Part shown: positions 6,920 to 31,380 of the stretch, piece by piece
How positions within the stretch are numbered: position 1 is the first letter of the stretch
How the letters are laid out: the number at the start of each line of letters is the position of its first letter
NCBI GenBank assembly: GCA_047651235.1
Contig: CP178758.1
Coordinates: 2,280,001-2,312,000, forward strand
Direction of reading: 5' to 3'
DNA length: 32,000 nucleotides
DNA from: Candidatus Electrothrix yaqonensis
GTDB lineage: Bacteria > Desulfobacterota > Desulfobulbia > Desulfobulbales > Desulfobulbaceae
Program-made: the position numbers and the translations under genes
Notes under the pieces: model-generated
Told to the model about the DNA's origin: nothing
Seen by the model: the letters and a program-made list of their open reading frames with translations, nothing else
The model's database searches: none

Positions 6920-7220
6920 GAATCTTGTGTTTAAAAGGGCACTGCAGCATTCACTGTATTTACGTAGTTGTCGCGTCCCGTGTGATAATATACCTGAAAA
7001 GAGCTGGCCGCTGTTCCTGGCCCGTGATAAAATAAACATTATCTTATCAGAATATAAACTGACGGGTTTTTATCATCATGAATATCGCACTGCACAGAAG
7101 AGCACGCACCACTCCGGTCGAGGCACTGAAAAATTGGCGGAAAACGCATCCCGATTTATTTAAAAAGCAGGTATACAATCAGGCGGGGCTTGACAAGTAG
7201 TCATTAAAAAAAGGGGTAAA

Positions 7221-8030
7221 ATGAGCAGCGATTTATCAGATATTGGATTTGACGTAAATAATGAAGAGGCGTTTTATGAATTAATTGAGAAGGCTTACGG
7301 GAAAGCTACCTCGATTAAAGCGGACAAAGGAACGTACTTTCTGTATTCGGATTCCTCAGGAGCAGAACTATGGATACAAATAAGTAAGGCAAACCAGCTT
7401 GTTGGAGTAACCCCTTATTATAAAGGGACTGGCAGAAGGACAGTTTGTCTGTCTGAAAATGTATATAGAAAAGAAAACGAGTTAGATGGTGCTTTTTATT
7501 CATGGGCAGACCCGGCTGATAAAGATGATCCGGAAAGTGGTGTATATCCCTTTGTGTTTGACGTGCCAAATCATAACTCTTTAGGAGATGTACTGCTTCC
7601 TCAAGATATTGAGATACAATTGTCAGCATTTGCGCAAGAGGTTCGTTATTATGAGAATGAAGAAAAATTTGAAAAACAGCAAAAAGGTGAAGCAAAGTGG
7701 GCATCTCAGTCATTTGTGTCTAGTGGATTATTTCACCCGGATGAAAAATCAACTCCTAAAAAACCACCAGAAGCGTTTGGAATATTTTCAGGAATAATTA
7801 AACAGACAGAAAAAAAGAAAAATGAGTTAACAGGACAGGAATTTCAATGGATGCTTGTGGATACATTGGGAGGTGAAGTCGATGTTTTAGCTGATTTAAC
7901 GTTCTTTAACACTGAACCAAAAGTTGGAGGAGTAGTACAGGGACAATTTTGGTTGACTGGACAGCTGTTAACAACGCCTCTATTAAAAAAGAAAAAGGGT
8001 ATTATAAATAGGGTTTTTGGAAAGAAATAA
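7221..8030 (+). CDS. hypothetical protein (AT-rich orphan gene)
   Basis: 269-aa ORF with a GGGG RBS-like run upstream. It is clearly more AT-rich than its flanks. No signal peptide, TM segment or recognisable motif. Confidence 0.6.
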   Translation: MSSDLSDIGFDVNNEEAFYELIEKAYGKATSIKADKGTYFLYSDSSGAELWIQISKANQLVGVTPYYKGTGRRTVCLSENVYRKENELDGAFYSWADPADKDDPESGVYPFVFDVPNHNSLGDVLLPQDIEIQLSAFAQEVRYYENEEKFEKQQKGEAKWASQSFVSSGLFHPDEKSTPKKPPEAFGIFSGIIKQTEKKKNELTGQEFQWMLVDTLGGEVDVLADLTFFNTEPKVGGVVQGQFWLTGQLLTTPLLKKKKGIINRVFGKK

Positions 8031-20860: not shown

Positions 20861-21367
20861 GATCTGTTCCGATGGCGTGACAGTTGAGGACAGCTCTGTC
20901 CCTGTTGCTCCCTATTGAAACATCGTCCTCCATATTTTGCAAAATGTTTCTTCCGGGTTATCCGCACTTGTCGGCAGATAACAAACCGCAGCGCCTCGGA
21001 ACAACAGCAGGATTATCCGAAAAAACACTTCACTCCAGCGAAAATAACGTGTATACATTCCGAATTGTTGCAGACAGCAGAGAGGGTGTTTTTTAAGGAA
21101 ACCTCAAAAGAACTCCGGAAGTGATCGATCTTCTCGAATGTTGTTTTTCGATAAATGATCGTTCTAAAAAACTTTTCAGCGCCCGAATCCTCCGTCTCTG
21201 TTTTACCGGAACCCCGGACAGTCCGGAGACAGCTGTCCGTATTGATTACGACTGCCCGGAATCCAATCCTGTTAGTTTTTAAAACAGAAGTCATGCGTTT
21301 ACCCTGCAGATAGCCAACGGAAAATCAGATTTACAGTCTATTTGAAAATTTAAGATCAGGAGAAAAA

Positions 21368-22024
21368 ATGATGAAGAACGGTATAATACTTGTTTTTGCT
21401 GTCATCCTGCTATCATTTGTAACAGGATGTTCATCAGAAAATAACAGAAAAGCACAAGGAGCTTTCCGTAACAGTCAACATGCTGTATCTGATGAAGAAG
21501 ATGTTGCTATCGATAAGGAAGTACCTTTTGCAGAACCTTCTGCGGAAGAGGAAAAACTCTATTCGTTAATCAATAACCACCGTAAACAGCATGGTTTGTC
21601 ATTTATTCCGTTATCCAAATCATTATCCTATGTTGCCAAAACTCATGTAAAAGATCTTGCAGCTCATCCCCCGGCCGGGAAATGTAATAAACATAGCTGG
21701 TCTGACAGTGATCTCTGGACATCCTGCTGCTATACAGATAACCATGCGCAAAAAAGATGTATGTGGAACAAACCTAAGAACTTGACGAATTATAGGGGAA
21801 ATGGATATGAAATTTCTTATGGTGGCAGGAAGATAAAAGCAACAGCCAAGCGGGCGCTTCAATCCTGGAAGTCCAGTCGGTTTCATAATGCGGTTATTCT
21901 TAATCGGAAGATCTGGGCAGATAAGAACTGGAAAAGTATCGGGATAGGTATCTTTGAAGATTATGCTGTTGTCTGGTTTGGTGAGAAGGTTGATCCTGAT
22001 GGATATTGGGAAAAAGGTAATTGA
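21368..22024 (+). CDS. lipoprotein with CAP/SCP/PR-1-like (YkwD-type) domain
   Basis: Lipobox LSFVTGCSS. CAP-like INNHRKQHGLSFIPLSKSLSYVAKTHVKDLAAH ... ALQSWKSSRFHNAVIL ... GIGIFEDYAVVWFG. Strong RBS AGGAGA. Confidence 0.7.
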   Translation: MMKNGIILVFAVILLSFVTGCSSENNRKAQGAFRNSQHAVSDEEDVAIDKEVPFAEPSAEEEKLYSLINNHRKQHGLSFIPLSKSLSYVAKTHVKDLAAHPPAGKCNKHSWSDSDLWTSCCYTDNHAQKRCMWNKPKNLTNYRGNGYEISYGGRKIKATAKRALQSWKSSRFHNAVILNRKIWADKNWKSIGIGIFEDYAVVWFGEKVDPDGYWEKGN

Positions 22025-25023: not shown

Positions 25024-25482
25024 TCATTTATCTCTTATGTGACGGAATCCCGGAGGCAGGGCAAATAAGAAACCGGGTAACGCGCAGGGCACGTACCCGG
25101 TGGACTGCTTTACATACAGCCCGAATCGCTGCTGCGGAGCAGGCCAGGCTGTAGTATTGCTTGAGACGGAGAGAGTGAGATGTACAGGTTGTAAAAAAAA
25201 CCGGCTAACGCTTCCTTCTTCTTTCTCAAGCTCTTTTGCAAGACAAAAGAATCTTTGAGCATCAATACGAAGCTCATACAGACAAAGAGCGACTGTAATT
25301 ACAAAAGCTAAAAGGGATAAAGATAGAAACCACTTTTCCATACATGATAGCGCAACTTTGTCTTGCTTCGTTAACGCAAGGAAGAACACACCAGTCGCAC
25401 CAGAGGAAACTGACAGAATATAGGCTCTTAACCTATTTCCAGCATCTTTTGCTAATTCATGATACTTTCCAATTTCAGTCAT
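25024..25482 (-). CDS. small 2-TM membrane protein (cassette ORF); 3' part probably read-through into non-coding GC-rich sequence
   Basis: The first ~90 aa are AT-rich and coherent (amphipathic N-terminus, two TM helices, ELRIDAQRFFCLAKELEKEE). After plus coordinate ~25210 the composition switches to GC-rich hairpin sequence and the translation looks non-protein-like. The ATG lies 16 nt after the attC-like junction. Confidence 0.45.
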   Translation of the reverse strand: MTEIGKYHELAKDAGNRLRAYILSVSSGATGVFFLALTKQDKVALSCMEKWFLSLSLLAFVITVALCLYELRIDAQRFFCLAKELEKEEGSVSRFFLQPVHLTLSVSSNTTAWPAPQQRFGLYVKQSTGYVPCALPGFLFALPPGFRHIRDK

Positions 25483-25587: not shown

Positions 25588-26553
25588 TTATTCTGGTAAA
25601 TCTGGCAATCCCTCAAGAATTTCTTCAGTAGACTGTGCTACCGCTGGGTAAATACGTTTAAGTTCATCAACATCTACCTTGCGTCTCTTGAGATTGAAGC
25701 TTCCAGTCGTATTGTAGATCTCATAAAAATCAATTTTATTGGGTCGCGCTTCTAGGCTGCTTACGATAGCGTAAACAATTGCGTTTGGACAACGTAATCC
25801 GAATGTAACGTCTTTAAGCTCTAACGGCGAATTTTGTAAACCCTTGTTGCCAATAATGCGCCACTCTTTTTCATATTTCCACGAATTTGCTTTTCTAAAA
25901 TAAACACGGCTATCCAACAGATTTCTCGATTGTATGTTGTTTTCTACCAACGCTTCCTGAACCAGACTTGTGGGTATTTTTCGAGTTCGGTTGTATTCAA
26001 TTTTTTGTATATTCGGTTCTGGTTTTCGACTAAAACCATATCCCAAACAAATTCCCTTGTGTTCATCACCATAATGACTCCATAGAACGGGATCAATTAC
26101 CGTTGAAGAAAAACAACATAATCCGCGATCATATTTTTTTAAGATTTCGGATTGTATTTTCTGGGTCAGTAAAAATATTTCTGAGTCTTCAGGATTGCTA
26201 CCCAAATCAGGATCTTTCGCATAATAGGCAATATTGGCTAATTCAGCTTCTGCTTTCTGACTCGCCGTTTTTCTTGCATATGATTCGGCGTTCTTTCCCT
26301 TAATTTCAGAATTCGATAGTTGAAACATTATTTCATTCGAAACTCTTCTTTCAATCAGTTTTGACAAAAGAACTCGCATATCCTGTAAATTCGTGTCGAA
26401 TTCTATCGCCGGTTTACAATCGAAAGGATCATTGTACTTGGTTGGATCAGCATAATATATTTTGTCCTCACATATTAATTCGATCGTTTCTGCAGTTACG
26501 CTTCGATATCGGAAAATTGATTTGGGAAGCTTCGCCTTCATTTTCATCCCCAC
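25588..26553 (-). CDS. DUF2971 family protein
   Basis: 321 aa. FRYRSV...IYYADPTKYNDPFDC, CCFSS...VLWSHYGDEHKGICLGY and WKYEKEWRI match the DUF2971 pattern. The start is ambiguous (GTG 26553, ATG 26547 or 26541). Confidence 0.8.
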   Translation of the reverse strand: MGMKMKAKLPKSIFRYRSVTAETIELICEDKIYYADPTKYNDPFDCKPAIEFDTNLQDMRVLLSKLIERRVSNEIMFQLSNSEIKGKNAESYARKTASQKAEAELANIAYYAKDPDLGSNPEDSEIFLLTQKIQSEILKKYDRGLCCFSSTVIDPVLWSHYGDEHKGICLGYGFSRKPEPNIQKIEYNRTRKIPTSLVQEALVENNIQSRNLLDSRVYFRKANSWKYEKEWRIIGNKGLQNSPLELKDVTFGLRCPNAIVYAIVSSLEARPNKIDFYEIYNTTGSFNLKRRKVDVDELKRIYPAVAQSTEEILEGLPDLPE

Positions 26554-26602: not shown

Positions 26603-26707
26603 GCATAACGATGAAGCTCACGGGCCCGCCGATCGAGCGAAGCGAGGAGGGAACCCAGCTGAGCCGCAGGCGAAGTTGGGCGGGTCCGGTGCAGCGCCGG
26701 GTTAGGC
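26603..26707 (-). other. attC-like recombination site (105 nt)
   Basis: Minus strand: GCCTAAC-CCGGC-GCTGCACCGGACCCGCC ... GGCGGGCCCGTGAGC-TTCATC-GTTATGC. The arms pair with two extra bases in the L'' arm. The stop codon TAA of the upstream ORF lies inside R''. Confidence 0.55.
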
Positions 26708-27034
26708 CACATGTTCTGCATGGACCAGCAAGAGCTTGAATTGACCGAGGCGAGAGGAGAGGAGCCACCGAATGAGCAGGTAGATGAATAAGAAGCCAAC
26801 GCATAGGCCGAGAACACCACCAACTATTGGGGCTGCTTTTGGTACACCCGCGAGGCCTAAGATAAAGCCGGCTATGCCACCGAGGATGCCTCCGCAGAGA
26901 CCAGAGCCGATTGATATGATAATGGCTCGCCAAAAGAAGCTCCAGCAGACGCTTGCTTTTGAAGAGAGAGGAAGTTCTGAGATGTTCAATGGGTTCATGT
27001 CGGACTCCGAGGGGAAAGATTCAAGAGAAGCCAT
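26702..27034 (-). CDS. small glycine-zipper membrane protein (cassette ORF)
   Basis: 110 aa with two predicted TM helices rich in GxxxG (GSGLCGGILGGIAGFILGLAG, VGGVLGLCVGFLF). The ATG lies 28 nt after the G|TTAGGC junction. Confidence 0.6.
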   Translation of the reverse strand: MASLESFPSESDMNPLNISELPLSSKASVCWSFFWRAIIISIGSGLCGGILGGIAGFILGLAGVPKAAPIVGGVLGLCVGFLFIYLLIRWLLSSRLGQFKLLLVHAEHVA

Positions 27035-27062
27035 GTAGTAGATTGATGCATTGGTGGTTGTG

Positions 27063-27125
27063 GCCTAACCATTGATTCCAAAGGCGCGCCCCTTCGGGCC
27101 ACGCCTTTGGAATGCCGAGTTGACC
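27063..27125 (-). other. attC-like recombination site (63 nt)
   Basis: Minus strand: GGTCAAC-TCGGC-ATTCCAAAGGCG-(15 nt)-CGCCTTTGGAAT-CAATG-GTTAGGC. Perfect 12-bp L stems, unpaired 5-nt spacers, and a canonical GTTAGGC core. Confidence 0.5.
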
Positions 27126-27254
27126 GTACCGGCCCAACATTTGATTCCTGCGGCGCTGCGCGCCTTCGGAACCAAACGTTGGACTCGAAATTTTCCTGGT
27201 ATAATCAACCGCAAGCGGCCATTATACCAGGAAAATTCCGGTCAACTCGGCATT
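27111..27254 (-). ncRNA. candidate structured RNA / ORF-less cassette (16-bp closing helix around two long hairpins)
   Basis: The perfect 16-bp pairing 27111-27126/27239-27254 encloses a 19-bp hairpin (27187-27205/27221-27239) and a 15-bp hairpin (27134-27148/27168-27182). All three non-WC pairs are G.U only on the minus strand. The G(CUUG)C tetraloop also exists only on the minus strand. Confidence 0.35.
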
Positions 27255-27327
27255 ATCAGGCGATGTTCACTGATAACAGGTGATAATTGACATTATCGGG
27301 AATGCTGCTCTGATAATGTATTATCAG
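27252..27327. promoter_or_regulatory. cluster of GATAAT/ATTATC palindromes (operator- or attI-like)
   Basis: CTGATAAT-GT-ATTATCAG is a perfect 18-bp palindrome at 27310-27327. TGATAAT-TGAC-ATTATCG lies at 27281-27298. ATTATCAG (27252-27259) pairs with CTGATAAC (27270-27277). Confidence 0.5.
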
Positions 27328-27375
27328 GAACTACCAGACGATTGAATGATTATCCCGTCTGATCAGTAATTCCTG

Positions 27376-27404
27376 TTTATATTCCTTAAACATACTGGTT
27401 TCAA
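27376..27404 (-). promoter_or_regulatory. sigma70-type promoter firing into the cassette array (Pc-like)
   Basis: Minus strand TTGAAA-(17 nt)-TATAAA in an AT-rich stretch, about 125 nt upstream of the first G|TT junction. Confidence 0.5.
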
Positions 27405-27529
27405 AAAGTAAACAGAAAAAAGCAGTGCAGGGGCGTAAAAAGTATCCCGCCGGTATCACACCTCTTTTTCACACCCCTTCCACAAACCACATAACGAAGC
27501 TGTCTGCTTCCGCACCTCCCGCTCTCCTT

Positions 27530-27713
27530 AAAAAATTCATCGGGTATCAAAAGGATCTTTTATCGAGTACCAAAAGGATCCTTTATCGGGCGTAGACCGG
27601 ATCACTTATCGCCCGTAAAGTGATGTATTCTACGCCCGTAAAATGGATCAATCATCGGGTATCAAAAGGATCATTTATCGAGTACCAAAAGGATCGTTTA
27701 TCGGGCGTAGTTT
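27530..27713. repeat. eight phased 23-bp iterons (consensus GGATCnTTTATCGrG...AAA), organised as a 59-bp direct repeat 115 bp apart
   Basis: GGATC at 27553, 27576, 27599, 27645, 27668 and 27691, with degenerate units at 27530 and 27622. All offsets are multiples of 23. 27537-27595 and 27652-27710 differ at 2 positions. Confidence 0.85.
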
Positions 27714-27798
27714 TACCGAACGAACGACAATACTTTTTATCCGGGACAGCCCGTGCCGGTTTCTGGCCGTAATTGTTCGGCAATCTTCAAGAAAATAC

Positions 27799-27827
27799 TT
27801 GACAGGACATACCCTGCCCTTTAAGGT
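27799..27827 (+). promoter_or_regulatory. possible sigma70 promoter of the HU-like/nuclease operon
   Basis: TTGACA (27799-27804), a 17-nt spacer, then TAAGGT (27822-27827). This lies 58 nt upstream of ATG 27885. The -10 is weak. Confidence 0.35.
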
Positions 27828-27884
27828 GTTTACAAATAAAATCTATTTTTTCATCATATTACCCCTCTGCAACGGAGAAACGTC

Positions 27885-28958
27885 ATGCCCGTGATCCACT
27901 GCAAACTCGAAGTCAACGCCCTCACAGTACCTCAGTCCTATAAAATGCGTTTTATCCCCAATAATAACCTGGGCACGAAGGACATTGCCGCAGCTATGTG
28001 CGAGATCGCCCCTGTTCTTACCCCGGATGTGGCCGAAGTCTCCATCAGCGCCCTTCTTCAGGCAGTTCAGAAGAATATGATCAACGGCAATCACGTCAGC
28101 CTGAATGACAAACTCATCTTCACCCTTTCCTTTACCGGCCGCCTGGACAATCCGGACGACCCGCTGCCGCCTGCTGCCGAGACCCTGCATGTGCGGGTTC
28201 AGCCCGCAGCAGGTTTTATGAAAGAGATACACTATCAGGCCGTGCTCGAACGGATGGACATGACTGAGAAGCTGCCGCAGATCAATCGGGTCGAGAACAG
28301 CACTCTGCAGCTCAATGATGTCCTGAGCAGCACCGATGTTCTGCAGCTGCACGGCGACAACCTGAACTTTGATCCGCAGTCGGGCAACGGGGAATGCGTG
28401 ATCAGCGGCACCCGCAGCGGCACGGCAGTCCAGACTCAGTTCGGGCCGATTTCCGACACCAATATCATCCTGATTCCCACTGTTCCGGCCCAGGACGATC
28501 CCTGGAATAACGAATACACCCTGTCGCTCTCGGTGCGCTATACCGAACACGGCACCCTGCGCACCGCCGTCTACCGCCGCAGACTGCGCACCCCGCTGGC
28601 AGTGCCCGGTCTGGGAGGGGAGACGCCGCCTGAGACCGGCATCCTGACCGGCAATGCAGCCACGCCTTATGTCGGGATCAATGCAGGCACGCTCACGGCG
28701 GACGAACGCCTCCGTATTCAGGTGGTTCAGGATGTGGCCGGAGAGCAGCTGCTCTTCTCCCTGCTTGATATGCAGGAAGGCGGCGCAGCAGGCACTGCGG
28801 TTGTCGTGACCCAGAACGGCGAATACATTCTGCCCGGCTTTGCCGGTTCCGCTGTCAGCACCCTGGAAATCACGGTGAATGAATACGCCGCCCTCTGGGA
28901 TATGATCCGCAATGACTATCAGGGCAGGCTGGTGGATGTGCTGGAGGTGGCGATGTAG
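27885..28958 (+). CDS. HU-like (Bacteroides HU_HIG-type) DNA-binding domain protein with DUF4469-like Ig-fold domain and unknown C-terminal domain
   Basis: 357 aa with RBS GGAGA. The N-terminal ~115 aa follow the HU_HIG pattern (YKMRFIPNNNLGTKDIAAAMCEIAPVLTPDVAEVSISALLQAVQKNMINGNHVSLNDKLIFTLSFTG ... LHVRVQPAAGFMKEI). The middle INRVENSTLQLNDVLSSTDVLQLHGDNLNFDP resembles DUF4469. Assignment is from remembered family patterns, not from a search. Confidence 0.55.
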   Translation: MPVIHCKLEVNALTVPQSYKMRFIPNNNLGTKDIAAAMCEIAPVLTPDVAEVSISALLQAVQKNMINGNHVSLNDKLIFTLSFTGRLDNPDDPLPPAAETLHVRVQPAAGFMKEIHYQAVLERMDMTEKLPQINRVENSTLQLNDVLSSTDVLQLHGDNLNFDPQSGNGECVISGTRSGTAVQTQFGPISDTNIILIPTVPAQDDPWNNEYTLSLSVRYTEHGTLRTAVYRRRLRTPLAVPGLGGETPPETGILTGNAATPYVGINAGTLTADERLRIQVVQDVAGEQLLFSLLDMQEGGAAGTAVVVTQNGEYILPGFAGSAVSTLEITVNEYAALWDMIRNDYQGRLVDVLEVAM

Positions 28959-29084: not shown

Positions 29085-30338
29085 ATGACCGGATACAATG
29101 AATCGTTTCTTGATGGTGTGCGACTTCCCATCCCTGAATTCAATACAGTACTGTCGAGTGAAGTGCTGAATCTGGGAGAAGTGTTCCACTATCCGAACTA
29201 TTCGGTGATCATGAACAGTGCGCCGGACAAGCGTTCACCCGTGATCGTGTGCCTGAATATCGACCAGAATCTGCTCAAAAGCACCAGGAGAAGCAACCGC
29301 TGGCGTATCGATCCCCGGATCGGATTCGAGAACCAGTTGGACAACGATTACTATGTCCGGAATCCTTGGGACAGAGGCCACATGACACGCCGTACCTCAG
29401 CAGCTTGGGGGCAGACAAAACGTGATGCGCAGTATGCCTCTGACGAGACCTTCTACTATTCCAACAGCACGCTCCAGCATGCCAACCTGAACCAGGATGA
29501 ATGGCTGAAACTGGAGGACTGGGTCTATGGACTCAAGCTCGACAAGGACGGGAAAATAACCTCGTTCTCCGGGCCGATCTATGGTGATTTTGATCGGACA
29601 ATCCGTCCCTCCGGGCGGCGGACTGCACTCATTCCGGCAGGCTTTTTCAAGGTGGTCTGCTTCATCAATAAGGAGACCGGCAAGCTGGATGTCCGTGCCT
29701 TTGTCATGTACCAGGATGCCGAGGCACTGGCGGACAAGTCCGGTCGTAAACGGTATGATAACCAGCACTACCAGGTCACTATCACCGAGGTCGAGGAGCT
29801 GACCGGTCTGCGGTTCGATGATGCCATTTATGAGTCTAACCCCCTCTACTACTCTGAGGAGAATGCTGCGTCTGAAGAGAACGTTTCAACTTTTCCGGAG
29901 AGGATTGAAGTTGCCAAGCCAGAGGATATTATTGCAGCCGGAGACAAGCGGCAGACGCTTAAAGACGATATTGTCGATATCTTTATTGCTGCGGCAATGC
30001 CTGATCCTGCCGGGAGTGGCGTCGGCAACGAATGGGTGTCTTTGATCAACCTCGGCAGTGAAGCAGTCGATCTGACCGGATGGTCACTGAGCGACAACTC
30101 GGATAAACGCCTGGTAATTGATACCGTGGTCAGTGATTCTGCTTCCCGTGTGCTTGCTCCGGGAAAGTCAATCGTCGTAAAAGGATTGGAACCGTTGCAG
30201 TTGGCAAACAAGGGTGACATCATCAAACTCTATGATGCTGACGGAGCACGGATCGACTGGGTTAATTACACAAAGCCTATGGTCCGTAGCGGGAAAGCGG
30301 TGGTTTTCCTGTCACCGCGCAATACCTTGGATGTATAG
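29085..30338 (+). CDS. DNA/RNA non-specific endonuclease (Endonuclease_NS, DRGH beta-beta-alpha-Me) fused to a lamin-tail domain; no signal peptide
   Basis: 417 aa with strong RBS AAGGAGG. PWDRGHM (catalytic His) and YYSNSTLQHANLNQDEWLKLED (Mg-binding Asn region) are collinear with Serratia/NucA nucleases. The C-terminal NEWVSLINLGSEAVDLTGWSLSD...GDIIKLYDADGARID is an LTD pattern. The N-terminus MTGYNESFLDG is not hydrophobic. Confidence 0.8.
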   Translation: MTGYNESFLDGVRLPIPEFNTVLSSEVLNLGEVFHYPNYSVIMNSAPDKRSPVIVCLNIDQNLLKSTRRSNRWRIDPRIGFENQLDNDYYVRNPWDRGHMTRRTSAAWGQTKRDAQYASDETFYYSNSTLQHANLNQDEWLKLEDWVYGLKLDKDGKITSFSGPIYGDFDRTIRPSGRRTALIPAGFFKVVCFINKETGKLDVRAFVMYQDAEALADKSGRKRYDNQHYQVTITEVEELTGLRFDDAIYESNPLYYSEENAASEENVSTFPERIEVAKPEDIIAAGDKRQTLKDDIVDIFIAAAMPDPAGSGVGNEWVSLINLGSEAVDLTGWSLSDNSDKRLVIDTVVSDSASRVLAPGKSIVVKGLEPLQLANKGDIIKLYDADGARIDWVNYTKPMVRSGKAVVFLSPRNTLDV

Positions 30339-30353: not shown

Positions 30354-30388
30354 AGGCCGGGTGAAGCATTATGGGAACCCGGCCTTTT
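30354..30388 (+). terminator. rho-independent terminator after the nuclease gene
   Basis: AGGCCGGG-(16 nt)-CCCGGCCT followed by TTT, 16 nt after the stop codon. Confidence 0.55.
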
Positions 30389-30564
30389 GCGCCTCTATAG
30401 TTGTCAGCACTTCCCATGGATCGTATTTTCCTTTTCTCTCACTGCCTGTTCGTTCTCTTCTTGTCAACAGCGCAAGAAATGACTATTGTTCTGATTACGA
30501 AATAATCTACAGAGGAAAACGAACCAAACAGCCCCTGATCGCCAGCGGCGATACTGTCCGAACA

Positions 30565-31011
30565 ATGAAGATCGTCTGTAAAAATAAAAAGGCCTTCCAT
30601 GATTATCATATTGATAAAACTATGGAGGCTGGCATGGTGCTGACCGGGCCGGAGGTAAAATCCCTGCGTGCCGGTCGGGCCAATATCAAGGACGGTTATG
30701 CAAGAATGAAGGACGGGGAGGTGTTTCTCTATAATATCCACATTTCCCCGTATGCCTTTGCCGCCGATGCCGCTGATCCGCTGCGGGTGCGCAAGCTGCT
30801 CCTGCACCGCCGGGAAATACGCAAGCTGATCGGCAAGCTGAATGAAAAAGGGGTTGCGCTTATTCCGCTCAAGATATACTTTATACATAACGGCAAGGCA
30901 AAAGTGGAACTCGGCCTTGCTCGCGGCAAGAAACTCTATGATAAGCGCGCCGCCTTAAAAGAAAAGCAATCAAAACGTGATGTCCAGCGTTCATTGCGTC
31001 AACAGTATTAA
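30565..31011 (+). CDS. smpB: SsrA-binding protein SmpB
   Basis: 148 aa from [37 protein letters not shown]..., a typical SmpB lying directly upstream of ssrA. The upstream part of the track ORF is rejected. Confidence 0.95.
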
Positions 31012-31018
31012 TTGTTAT

Positions 31019-31380
31019 GGGGGTGAAACGGATTCGACGGGGATATGTAAGCTCAGCGTTGCATGTCGAGTGTTCTGTCAGCTCGTAAAAATGATGGAAT
31101 TGTAAATATAATCGCAGACGATTATAACTACGCACTGGCAGCGTAAGCTGCTGTGCCGCTTTCTCGGTCCGCGCCCGTAAGGCCGGAGCAAAGCGTCGAT
31201 TCTTCGGGCTGGTCTAACCGATGTGCCTCTCATTGGAAAGACGAGAATTTAACAGGCTGGCATTCGGCAATCTGCTGTTTCGGGTGAGAGCCGGGTGCGA
31301 GATTTTTACCCGGAACTAAACATGTAGAGACGTGAGGGGAGTATTTTCGGACCCGGGTTCAACTCCCGGCACCTCCACCA
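31019..31380 (+). ncRNA. ssrA: tmRNA (ssrA)
   Basis: The 5' GGGGGTGAAACGGATTCGACGGGG pairs with the 3' ...CACCTCCACCA, including G3:U, to form the tRNA-Ala-like acceptor. T-arm GGGTTCAACTCCCGG is present. Tag reading frame 31114-31146 is GCAGACGATTATAACTACGCACTGGCAGCGTAA = ADDYNYALAA*. Confidence 0.95.

Follow-up and report, generated by a model that had tools for sequence, protein, structure and literature searches.

The window analyzed here is a 32,000-nucleotide stretch of DNA from a cable bacterium (Ca. Electrothrix/Electronema). The genes around the site of interest encode a DUF2971/PDC-S31 protein, two small open reading frames without family assignment, an HU-Ig protein (a predicted HU-like domain joined to Ig-like domains), and an Endonuclease_NS+LTD protein. 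The HU-Ig gene is preceded by an array of phased direct repeats and a candidate promoter (Table 1), with an A-rich stretch lying before the -35 hexamer. A generic promoter scanner did not call the -10-like hexamer because only three of its six positions agree with TATAAT.

Table 1. Features of the array, the promoter region and the HU-Ig gene (window coordinates)
Feature	Position	Strand	Remarks
Outlying cluster of three unit-like sites	27253..27328	+	27253 TTATCAGGCGATG, 27293 TTATCGGGAATGC, 27321 TTATCAGG
Array, eight units in exact 23-bp phase	27530..27713	+	composite; layout A-A-B-(b-b)-A-A-B
A-type units	array units 1, 2, 6, 7		TTyATCGrGTAyCAAAAGGATCn
B-type units	array units 3, 4, 5, 8		TTATCGGGCGTAG or inverse CTACGCCCGTAA
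Left copy of 59-nt block	27537..27595	+	units 1-3
Right copy of 59-nt block	27652..27710	+	units 6-8
Central inverted repeat	27582..27643	.	arms 27582-27607 and 27618-27643, 26 nt, 77% complementary
Lone degenerate unit core	27737..27744	+	TTATCCGG; between array and promoter
-35 hexamer	27799..27804	+	TTGACA; 86 nt 5' of ATG
-10-like hexamer	27822..27827	+	TAAGGT; 17 nt after -35; family consensus TAnnnT
Shine-Dalgarno sequence	27874..27877	+	GGAG; inside clade-conserved 5' leader CCCTCTGCAACGGAGAAaCGtCATG
HU-like plus two Ig-like (DUF4469-type) domains, predicted	27885..28958	+	357 aa; array-adjacent gene

The phased 23-bp repeats are real. Direct reading of the sequence places the unit starts at 27530 and then in 23-bp steps to 27691, as the initial annotation had reported, and the consensus given there (GGATCnTTTATCGrG-n5-AAA) holds, as do all of its other statements about the sequence. 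GGATC occurs in six units (GATC at 27554, 27577, 27600, 27646, 27669, and 27692), those at 27530 and 27622 being degenerate; the two copies of the 59-nt block are 97% identical at an offset of 115 bp (5 x 23); and the central units have in common the word CGCCCGTAAA, found 23 bp apart at 27610-27619 and 27633-27642. The central inverted repeat, made up of oppositely oriented B-type cores, is the center of symmetry of the array. Self-identity of the array at lag 23 is 0.63, compared with 0.12 to 0.30 at the other lags from 18 to 29 and with a maximum of 0.44 at any lag in 5000 shuffles, and elsewhere in the 32-kb window no stretch of 184 nt attains 0.5 at any lag from 15 to 40. Owing to degeneracy in the middle units, TRF listed the array as a pair of 23-bp sub-arrays. 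The array is no assembly artifact, for an independent assembly built from a different sequencing run (L212) contains all of it and is 100% identical across 664 nt.

The product of the gene behind the array is predicted to combine an HU-like region (residues ~1-125) with two beta-sandwich Ig-like domains, and its AF2 model (pLDDT 91) is all-beta from residue ~130. The top Foldseek match was the HU-HIG plus Ig protein 4FMR (E 2e-11), aligned across both domains, and classical HU proteins were also matched (6n2l, TM 0.72; 5l8z), as were many Ig-fold structures. In a profile search 4FMR was likewise the best match, with weak matches to HU chains (E 0.06). Pfam gave a PF14848 score of 18.2 bits, under the cut-off of 30, and no PF14734 match; several close homologues have precomputed PF14848, PF14734, or PF18291 matches and are named 'DUF4469 domain-containing'. 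The label 'HU-like' in the initial annotation thus had a sub-threshold Pfam match only, yet it is upheld by structure prediction and Foldseek, and on the model both an N-terminal HU/IHF-like fold and a C-terminal Ig-like beta-sandwich appear to be present. The protein is acidic (pI 4.7; family median 5.2), with a net charge of about -2 to -3 on the HU-like domain. The HU 'arm' is short, forms no extended beta-ribbon in the model, and ends in a conserved acidic, proline-rich tip, GRLDxPDDPLPP.

The HU-Ig family is an expansion of stand-alone, lineage-specific genes in cable bacteria: all 98 genomic matches fall in cable-bacterium genomes, each with at least 7 to 16 paralogues. Among 72 family loci, 62 have a 23-bp-period array 5' of a conserved promoter and 10 have no detectable array; array length ranges from about 3 to 10 units, with a median of ~5. 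The best self-similarity lag was 23 in 47 of 71 upstream regions and 46, 45, or 22 in 14 more, and none of the coding and downstream control regions peaked at lag 23 (mean lag-23 identity of 0.53 upstream versus 0.28 and 0.31 in the controls). Over 318 kb of family loci, every lag-23 periodic segment lay 5' of a family gene, and the other lags from 19 to 27 yielded 0 or 1 periodic segments each. The promoter itself is of the sigma-70 type (TTGACA, 17 nt, TAnnnT), and in nearly all family loci its TTGACA stands at -86/-87 from the ATG. The array ends a median of 38 nt upstream of the -35 hexamer, and some arrays overlap it; in the clade of the window this distance is 86 nt, more than in most paralogues. 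Orthologues occur in unrelated genomic contexts in which array, promoter, and gene stay together, and no conserved neighbor gene was found within 1.5 kb on either side at about 70 loci. Each family member is thus a self-contained module of array, promoter, and gene. A conserved neighboring regulator gene was considered and rejected, the sole recurrent flanking family being TPR-repeat noise. Three Bacteroides DUF4469 loci had no 23-bp array, a sample too small to generalize.

Phased arrays of about 22 bp beside an AT-rich stretch are the hallmark of iteron-type plasmid and phage origins, and the initial annotation had offered as one explanation an active or vestigial origin of an integrated plasmid or phage. 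The locus has part of the required anatomy. Eight direct repeats lie in phase beside an AT-rich stretch and the gene of a putative DNA-binding protein, and the ~5 kb around the array are low in GC content and include a candidate defense gene, so these surroundings may be an island. Iteron arrays comprise at least three phased direct repeats of ~17-22 bp, a pattern matched here by eight units of 23 bp, but they also have an adjacent Rep gene, DnaA boxes with an AT-rich unwinding element, and one copy per replicon, none of which was found here. No Rep-family, DnaA, or helicase gene lies nearby. The TTATCC-type boxes described earlier exist (27350-27355 and 27737-27742) but are not DnaA boxes, since TTATCCACA is absent at up to one mismatch from the intergenic region 27035-27884; instead, they resemble the unit core TTATCGGG in degenerate form. 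The AT-rich stretch (27360-27430) also precedes the array of L004, the closest protein relative, and shows no sign of being an unwinding element. A comparison with plasmids and phages, which the initial annotation had proposed for the 23-mer, revealed no similarity for the array region (27500-27880 against 72,556 plasmids and 50,697 phages), and the window protein has no relative in viral contigs. Furthermore, each genome has equivalent arrays ahead of at least 7 to 16 paralogous genes on the chromosome, always at a set distance from a promoter, which does not fit an origin. The likeness to R6K gamma ori (seven 22-bp iterons), pSC101, and RK2 oriV extends to phased ~22-bp direct repeats and to a neighboring gene whose product may bind the repeats and autoregulate. 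It ends at the absence of a Rep protein, DnaA boxes, and plasmid or phage relatives, and at the number of arrays, many to a chromosome and each at a set distance from its promoter. An integrated-replicon origin was thus not borne out, and we regard it as extremely improbable.

A common dispersed intergenic repeat, the outcome that the initial annotation had set against its own proposals, was not found in that form: over the 318 kb of loci the period recurs only 5' of HU-Ig family genes. A REP- or MITE-like element likewise does not fit. The 32-kb window has no second site with the unit, and unit sequences are unique in each genome sampled. A metagenome scan with the 17-mer AAAAGGATCNTTTATCG returned, among the matches listed, single chance matches, none of them array-like by BLAST. 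Just 5' of the arrays of two family loci (L005 and L214) lies a tRNA-T-arm-like fragment in which ARAGORN found no tRNA; integration linked to a tRNA or tmRNA was considered and set aside, and this fragment does not match the 3' end of the tmRNA in the window.

The arrays are constant in pitch and private in sequence. Among 59 arrays we distinguished 37 unit classes, each confined to one paralogue inside a genome and common to its orthologues across species, always at the 23-bp pitch. No within-genome pair of arrays has a unit in common (0 of 162), and within-genome similarity does not exceed 0.47, against a background of 0.36 and a split-half value of 0.61 for the same array. Orthologous arrays correspond unit by unit across genera (L034 and L052; the window, L213, and L214), and L213 and L214 reproduce the layout of the window array, inverted B units included. 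The A-type unit is near-invariant over 16 units from four genomes. Orthologues retain about 4 to 9 full units, and those that survive stay in the 23-bp register. Judged by this conservation, orthologous arrays appear to be under purifying selection. The proteins vary along with the arrays. Between members with the same unit type, the N domain is more alike than the C domain (identity of 0.86 versus 0.76; 19 of 21 pairs), and the reverse holds between members with different unit types (0.43 versus 0.55). Of eight columns that are conserved within and differ between classes, seven fall in residues 26-127. Rather than functional co-evolution, this shift in domain rates could reflect physical linkage between the array and the gene's 5' half, together with gene conversion among paralogues in the 3' half.

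Taken together, these comparisons suggest that the array is a private, paralogue-specific upstream operator of the gene at 27885-28958, cooperatively read and probably bound by that gene's own product, a reading to which we assign a probability of roughly 0.55. A cooperative operator for the adjacent DNA-binding protein was the other explanation offered initially; its first half, the operator array, is favored by the comparative evidence, and from the same comparisons we infer its second half, binding by the adjacent protein. The two steps differ in strength. That some protein binds the units is very probable. That this protein is the gene's own product has somewhat better than even odds, and both the protein's acidity and the shortness of the HU arm weaken it. 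An inverted repeat is present in most unit cores, as would suit sites bound by a dimer, and several classes, including the B units of the window, are poor palindromes.

Alternatively, the array may be a class-specific cis-element read by unlinked transcription factors, with the HU-Ig protein merely a regulated product. In favor of this are the acidity of the protein and its short, acidic HU arm, and a position 5' of the -35 hexamer is typical of activator sites. In addition, in the related HU-HIG proteins of Bacteroidetes the Ig domain partly fills the classical HU DNA site, and these proteins have been argued to be unlikely sequence-specific transcription factors (Burroughs et al., PMC5499826). 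Such an arrangement would, however, call for a second family with ~37 specificities (7-16 per genome), all obeying the same 23-bp geometry, and genes of that kind are not linked to the modules; a one-to-one co-distribution with the arrays is known for HU-Ig alone. We consider unlinked readers unlikely.

The operator reading leaves room for a further layer, in which the six GATC sites would add a Dam-type, methylation-sensitive epigenetic switch competing with protein binding, as at pap and agn43. Across four genomes, 15 of 16 A-type units of the window class retain GATC, which lies at the center of the palindrome AAAGGATCCTTT. Seen from the arrays of L004, L005, L001, and L003, it might be placed in a non-conserved 'linker', a view we rejected on its conservation within this class in L213, L214, and L215. 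On the other hand, arrays of other classes have no GATC and most units of L004 lack it as well, its frequency in the window is ordinary (180 observed versus 156 +/- 13 expected, neither over- nor under-represented), no GATC methyltransferase was identified here, and its conservation is equally explained if it is plainly part of the recognized sequence. The Dam-dependent pap and agn43 clusters likewise have several GATC sites inside putative protein-binding sites 5' of a promoter; in contrast to these, the six sites of the window keep a strict 23-bp pitch and are confined to one array class of the family. The evidence neither favors nor refutes a methylation switch, to which we give a low probability.

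Action of the repeats as RNA is very improbable. Transcribed from an upstream or antisense promoter, each palindromic unit could form a small hairpin, and many unit cores are indeed inverted repeats. The conserved promoter, however, sits 3' of the array, several classes (the window B units among them) are poorly palindromic, and complementarity to the gene's own leader or coding sequence is not above chance. Rfam, searched at a permissive threshold over 26900-27900, gave no family match, only a chance miRNA match. A strict 23-bp DNA period with gain and loss of whole units is more naturally a constraint of duplex geometry. An array templated from, or complementary to, the leader or coding sequence of its gene (DGR-like or antisense) was also rejected, as the longest word in common did not exceed in length that of mismatched array-gene pairs.

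If the operator reading is correct, its mechanism might run as follows. A sequence-specific protein would occupy each unit, and contact between neighboring bound proteins would fix the pitch at 23 bp. Five units make 115 bp, or ~11 helical turns, so that the protein array would circle the DNA once per approximately five units. The resulting nucleoprotein filament, on or just 5' of the UP/-35 region, would set transcription of the gene, and were the reader the product of the gene behind the array, the module would be autoregulatory. The variable HU-like domain may provide class-specific recognition or class-specific dimerization, and the more conserved Ig-like domains may provide constant lateral contacts. 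As to the sign of regulation, negative feedback is slightly favored because the -35 hexamer matches the consensus as it stands and several arrays run up to it or into it. The outlying cluster upstream of the array may hold auxiliary sites; its members are interspersed with inverted CTGATAA boxes and are similar to array units of L004 and L005. This assignment is tentative because the 8-mer alone is not significant genome-wide.

A related possibility is that control of the promoter is a by-product and that the array is a nucleation or 'address' site for a higher-order complex of its cognate HU-Ig protein, with a role that is centromere-like (as in ParR-parC or omega-heptad complexes) or that organizes or tethers the chromosome by means of the Ig domains. 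Its architecture is that of plasmid centromeres doubling as operators, the pitch is constant across classes, arrays reach 10 units, the pair of conserved Ig-like domains could serve in protein-protein contacts, and partition roles have been predicted for some HU clades (Burroughs et al., PMC5499826). Against this stand the lack of a ParA/ParM-type partner or any other conserved neighbor and the want of a precedent for 7-16 different 'centromeres' on one chromosome, and we consider such a role unlikely. Extended to the whole genome, the operator reading would yield a bank of about 10-20 orthogonal, self-recognizing modules, each HU-Ig protein reading only its own array and forming a cooperative filament there. 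These modules could serve as independent bistable, epigenetic switches or as address tags on the chromosome of a cell filament that is multicellular and polyploid. Such a larger proposal is speculative, and we hold it to be about as doubtful as the address-site role.

In the literature searched, we found no description of this array-promoter-gene architecture, no mention of DUF4469, and no link of cable bacteria with tandem repeats and promoters; a recent paper on the cable-bacterium genome repertoire does not mention HU or nucleoid proteins. Should the proteins prove to read their own arrays, they would amount to a large collection of naturally occurring, orthogonal protein-operator pairs, all with one geometry and an HU-like scaffold. 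This natural library of DNA-binding specificities on a fold usually thought to be non-specific would overturn the view of HU-HIG-type proteins as not sequence specific. It would also offer an entry to gene regulation and chromosome organization in cable bacteria, for which we found no regulatory elements described, and would be a source of synthetic-biology parts. Leaving binding aside, a clean comparative rule emerges, consisting of a constant 23-bp pitch, private sequence, and exclusive linkage to one family. For annotation, the locus warns against taking every iteron-like array for an origin, even one that has GATC and TTATC motifs.

Two further known systems resemble the modules described here. 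In plasmid partition (ParR-parC of R1, ParG/omega heptads, and SopB-sopC), the gene for the binding protein has phased direct repeats beside or across its promoter, binding is cooperative and produces a helical nucleoprotein structure, and the array sequence is specific to each system. Like parC of ParR, the arrays of the window family are phased direct repeats upstream of the gene's promoter (62 of 72 loci). The family differs from partition systems in its fold, which is predicted to be HU-like plus Ig rather than RHH or HTH, in having no linked NTPase (ParA, ParM, or TubZ) within 1.5 kb at about 70 loci, in being chromosomal with 7-16 orthogonal copies per genome, and in its 23-bp units, compared with partition repeats of 7, 11, or 43 bp.

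The second is the HU-HIG clade, HU/IHF-superfamily proteins that have an Ig domain at the C terminus (PF14848 and PF14734; 4FMR, BVU_2165) (Burroughs et al. 2017, PMC5499826). Like these proteins, the window protein appears to be an HU-like domain fused to an Ig-like domain, and its family likewise shows lineage-specific expansion, an HU domain that diverges fast, and genes that stand alone with no partners in an operon (PMC5499826). HU-HIG proteins are found in Bacteroidetes and measure about 260 aa, whereas the window family belongs to cable bacteria of the Desulfobulbaceae, and the window protein has 357 aa with a second beta-sandwich domain and, unlike HU-HIG, Pfam scores below the gathering threshold. 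Finally, the conclusion that HU-HIG proteins are unlikely to be sequence specific (PMC5499826) runs counter to what the private arrays suggest for their relatives in cable bacteria.

The eight units in exact 23-bp register, the GATC sites at 27554, 27577, 27600, 27646, 27669, and 27692, the 59-nt direct repeat (units 1–3 versus units 6–8, 97% identical, offset 115 bp), and the repeat CGCCCGTAAA carried by both central units 23 bp apart, all described in the initial annotation, were confirmed on re-reading of the sequence. In addition, the two central units and unit 3 form a 26-nt inverted repeat (arms 27582–27607 and 27618–27643). Array self-identity reached 0.63 at a lag of 23 versus 0.12 to 0.30 at neighboring lags, the maximum across all lags in 5,000 shuffles was 0.44, and a self-identity scan found no comparable periodicity elsewhere in the 32-kb window. 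TRF split the array into two 23-bp sub-arrays because the middle units are degenerate. A same-strain contig from an independent assembly of another sequencing run (L212) was identical to the window over 664 nt that include the array. Approximately 200 to 280 bp upstream lies a dense cluster of TTATCAG, CTGATAA, and TTATCGG boxes (27250–27365), and the boxes at 27253 (TTATCAGGCGATGTT) and 27293 (TTATCGGGAATGC) are closely similar to array units in two orthologues of the window gene (L004 and L005). They may be auxiliary sites for the array's reader, for example in looping.

Arrays of the same pitch recur upstream of related genes. When one genome per species was scanned, 98 HU-like/Ig-domain (HU-Ig) family genes were recovered, all in cable-bacterium genomes, with the lowest count (at least 7) on the closed "Candidatus Electronema halotolerans" chromosome and the highest (16) in one MAG. 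Many MAG contigs (L020, L025, L013, L037, L062, L071, L053, and L058) stop within family genes or no more than ~300 bp upstream of them, a sign that short-read assembly may be interrupted by the arrays or by the conserved paralogues; per-genome copy numbers are therefore probably underestimated. Of the 600-nt regions ahead of about 75 family genes, about 50 had a TRF period of 23 (or 46 or 69, and in rare cases 22 or 24), and autocorrelation gave a best lag of 23 in 47 of 71 and of 46, 45, or 22 in 14 more, while control regions (coding and downstream) never peaked at lag 23. With a run-based detector, 62 of 72 loci had an array, and array length ranged from 2.4 to 10 units (median, about 5). 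Across 318 kb of fetched loci, all lag-23 segments lay upstream of family genes, and every other lag from 19 to 27 yielded only 0 or 1 segment. The longest array (10 units; L047, 1200–1420) contains four consecutive identical units (ATTAGCTTAGGATTCTAAATCCC), pointing to very recent unit amplification and an ability of arrays to expand quickly.

The promoter is conserved as well: in nearly all loci, TTGACA is positioned at −86/−87 relative to the ATG, a 17-nt spacer separates it from a TAnnnT hexamer, and GGAG follows as the Shine-Dalgarno sequence. The array ends a median of 38 nt before the −35 element (86 nt in the window), and a few arrays overlap it. Array, promoter, and gene stay together in orthologues of the window gene despite unrelated neighborhoods (MurJ/EF-G, NUDIX/topoisomerase, Rho, SNase, and TetR genes among them), and no conserved flanking gene was found around family loci. 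The suggestion that the repeats are an iteron-type origin of an integrated replicon did not hold up and is extremely improbable: there is no Rep, no DnaA box, and no plasmid or phage relative, and the strongest counterevidence is the presence of many promoter-linked array copies per chromosome. A short distance upstream of the array, two orthologous loci (L005, 1150–1205; L214, 760–810) carry a tRNA-3′-half-like fragment (GGGGTCGCGGGTTCGA(T/A)TCCTG) that is missing from the window; it gave no ARAGORN tRNA and no match to the 3′ end of the window tmRNA, and it may be an integration-site remnant.

Units of different paralogues are unrelated in sequence (e.g., CTCCATGCAAGCATGGAG, AACATCCTAGGATGTT, CCACTATAGTGCAAC, and TAGGATTCTAAATCCCATTAGC), and profile comparison sorted 59 arrays into 37 unit classes. 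None of 162 within-genome pairs shared a class; their similarity peaked at 0.47, the background median being 0.36, and halves of a single array scored 0.61. Orthologous arrays of different genomes, such as L034 and L052, share classes with unit-by-unit correspondence. Most unit sequences contain an inverted repeat, a feature relevant to arrays acting as RNA hairpins, which we regard as very improbable. The window's class (the window, L213, L214, L005, and L215; 69 to 76% protein identity) repeats a composite layout of A-A-B, inverted B units, and A-A-B, with about 4 to 9 full units and the remaining units holding the 23-bp register. Its A unit, TTyATCGrGTAyCAAAmrGATCn, is near-invariant over 16 units from four genomes, 15 of which carry GATC, whereas the closest relative by protein (L004, 88% identity) has only B-like units and one GATC. 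Judging from these units, GATC is conserved in the window-class unit and is not general to family arrays; a putative Dam-type methylation layer in this class seems quite unlikely.

We showed that the array is a selected cis-element that is class-specific, phase-constrained, and tied to the family promoter. In the model that we propose, each unit would be occupied by a sequence-specific protein, probably a dimer since unit cores are palindromic, and lateral contacts between neighboring proteins would set the 23-bp pitch. As 23 bp is about 2.2 helical turns, successive sites would rotate by ~70 degrees, and the same face would recur every five units (about 11 turns, 115 bp), a span matched by the offset of the window's internal duplication and by the median array length. 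The resulting nucleoprotein complex would then set transcription from the adjacent promoter. A single reader cannot recognize some 37 unrelated sequences, and the geometry is constant; the readers must therefore be paralogues of one family, one per array. Since one-to-one co-distribution with the arrays was seen for HU-Ig and for no other family, we favor autoregulation, in which each array is read by its own gene's product (probability, roughly 0.55). The conserved Ig domains would supply the constant lateral contacts. We lean toward negative feedback because the −35 element is consensus and arrays abut it.

Domain-wise comparison of the proteins bears on this choice. Among paralogues, conservation is lower in the half with the HU-like domain than in the other half (mean pairwise identity, 0.44 versus 0.56). 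Pairs sharing a unit class have identities of 0.86 in the N-domain and 0.76 in the C-domain (the N-domain being ahead in 19 of 21), pairs with different units have 0.43 and 0.55, and 7 of 8 columns conserved within but differing between classes fall in residues 26–127. This pattern would be expected from co-evolution of a recognition (or dimerization) domain with its site. Alternatively, it could arise if the 5′ gene half is physically linked to the array and 3′ halves are gene-converted among paralogues.

Pfam gave the window protein only a subthreshold HU-DNA_bdg match (18 bits versus a cutoff of 30). With 61 homologues as input, AlphaFold2 gave a confident model (pLDDT, 91) in which an N-terminal beta-hairpin is followed by an HU-like alpha-alpha-beta-beta-beta-alpha domain, reaching approximately residue 125, and by two beta-sandwich domains. 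The sole strong Foldseek match (E = 2e-11) was 4FMR, the structure of BVU_2165 from Bacteroides vulgatus, an "HU-HIG" protein that combines HU and Ig domains. Classical HU proteins came next, over the N-domain, and profile searches were concordant. HU-HIG proteins are a rapidly diverging family of stand-alone genes, expanded in particular lineages and judged unlikely to be sequence-specific factors (Burroughs et al., PMC5499826). The cable-bacterial family is acidic (median pI, 5.2; window protein, 4.7), its N-domain has a net charge of about −2 to −3, and its HU "arm" is short with a conserved, acidic, proline-rich tip; this acidity and this arm are caveats for DNA binding. The chief uncertainty of the whole reading lies in the proposed binding of arrays by acidic HU-Ig proteins. 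The same acidity would suit reading of the arrays by another, unlinked factor family, which is possible if unlikely and is disfavored by parsimony. An analogy to ParR-parC makes it attractive to see the arrays chiefly as sites that would serve the cognate protein for nucleation, as a centromere-like element, or as an address; there is no NTPase partner, and this role appears distinctly unlikely.

Features around the array (window coordinates)
Feature	Position	Strand	Remarks
Cobyrinate a,c-diamide synthase-like gene	ends 24777
Small ORF	25024–25482	minus	no family match
DUF2971 gene	25588–26553	minus	matches PADLOC candidate defense family PDC-S31, E 3e-43
Small ORF	26702–27034	minus	no family match
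Highly structured element	27055–27260		~200 nt
Array	27530–27713
HU-like gene	27885–28958
Endonuclease_NS + lamin-tail-domain gene	29085–30338	plus
smpB	30361–31011
tmRNA	31019–31380		tag ADDYNYALAA; directly after smpB

The window belongs to a cable bacterium, judging by homologues of the downstream protein in "Candidatus Electrothrix" and "Candidatus Electronema." GC content is low (0.39 to 0.47) over 24.5 to 27.5 kb. The DUF2971 gene lies in this stretch, with the cobyrinate a,c-diamide synthase-like gene on one side and the array on the other, and the region may represent a small genomic island; other low-GC segments lie at 7000–8000 and 21000–22000 (0.39 to 0.41), the window otherwise averaging about 0.55. 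The structured element consists of inverted repeats nested within one another: the outer stem (16 nt, 27111–27126/27239–27254) is perfect, the inner stem measures 20 nt, and there is a hairpin of 18 nt. Its predicted RNA fold has an energy of −104 kcal/mol (z = −9.5 versus shuffles). It has no Rfam match and no second copy in the window or fetched loci; possible identities are a structured RNA, a cluster of terminators, and a MITE-like element. The DNA/RNA nonspecific endonuclease with a lamin-tail domain, weakly matching the PADLOC "SNc+LTD" model, is encoded directly downstream of the HU-Ig gene here and in the same-strain contigs L211 and L212, and its gene is absent beside orthologues in other genomes. 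The longest smpB ORF begins about 70 codons ahead of the SmpB domain, and the true start is therefore probably further downstream.

At three Bacteroides DUF4469 loci, 23-bp arrays were absent. One of them (L209, 1260–1290) has three to four copies of a short motif (GACCCTATA/TATAGGGTC) ahead of the gene, a hint that Bacteroidetes relatives may have their own, simpler site clusters. In sum, we found no description in the literature searched of the combination reported here, namely, an expanded cable-bacterial HU-Ig family with a private array per paralogue, an invariant 23-bp pitch, and a conserved promoter. The HU-HIG + Ig protein family is already known from Bacteroidetes, and phased direct-repeat arrays are a known kind of operator or centromere for the product of an adjacent gene, as in iterons, parC, and the omega heptads.
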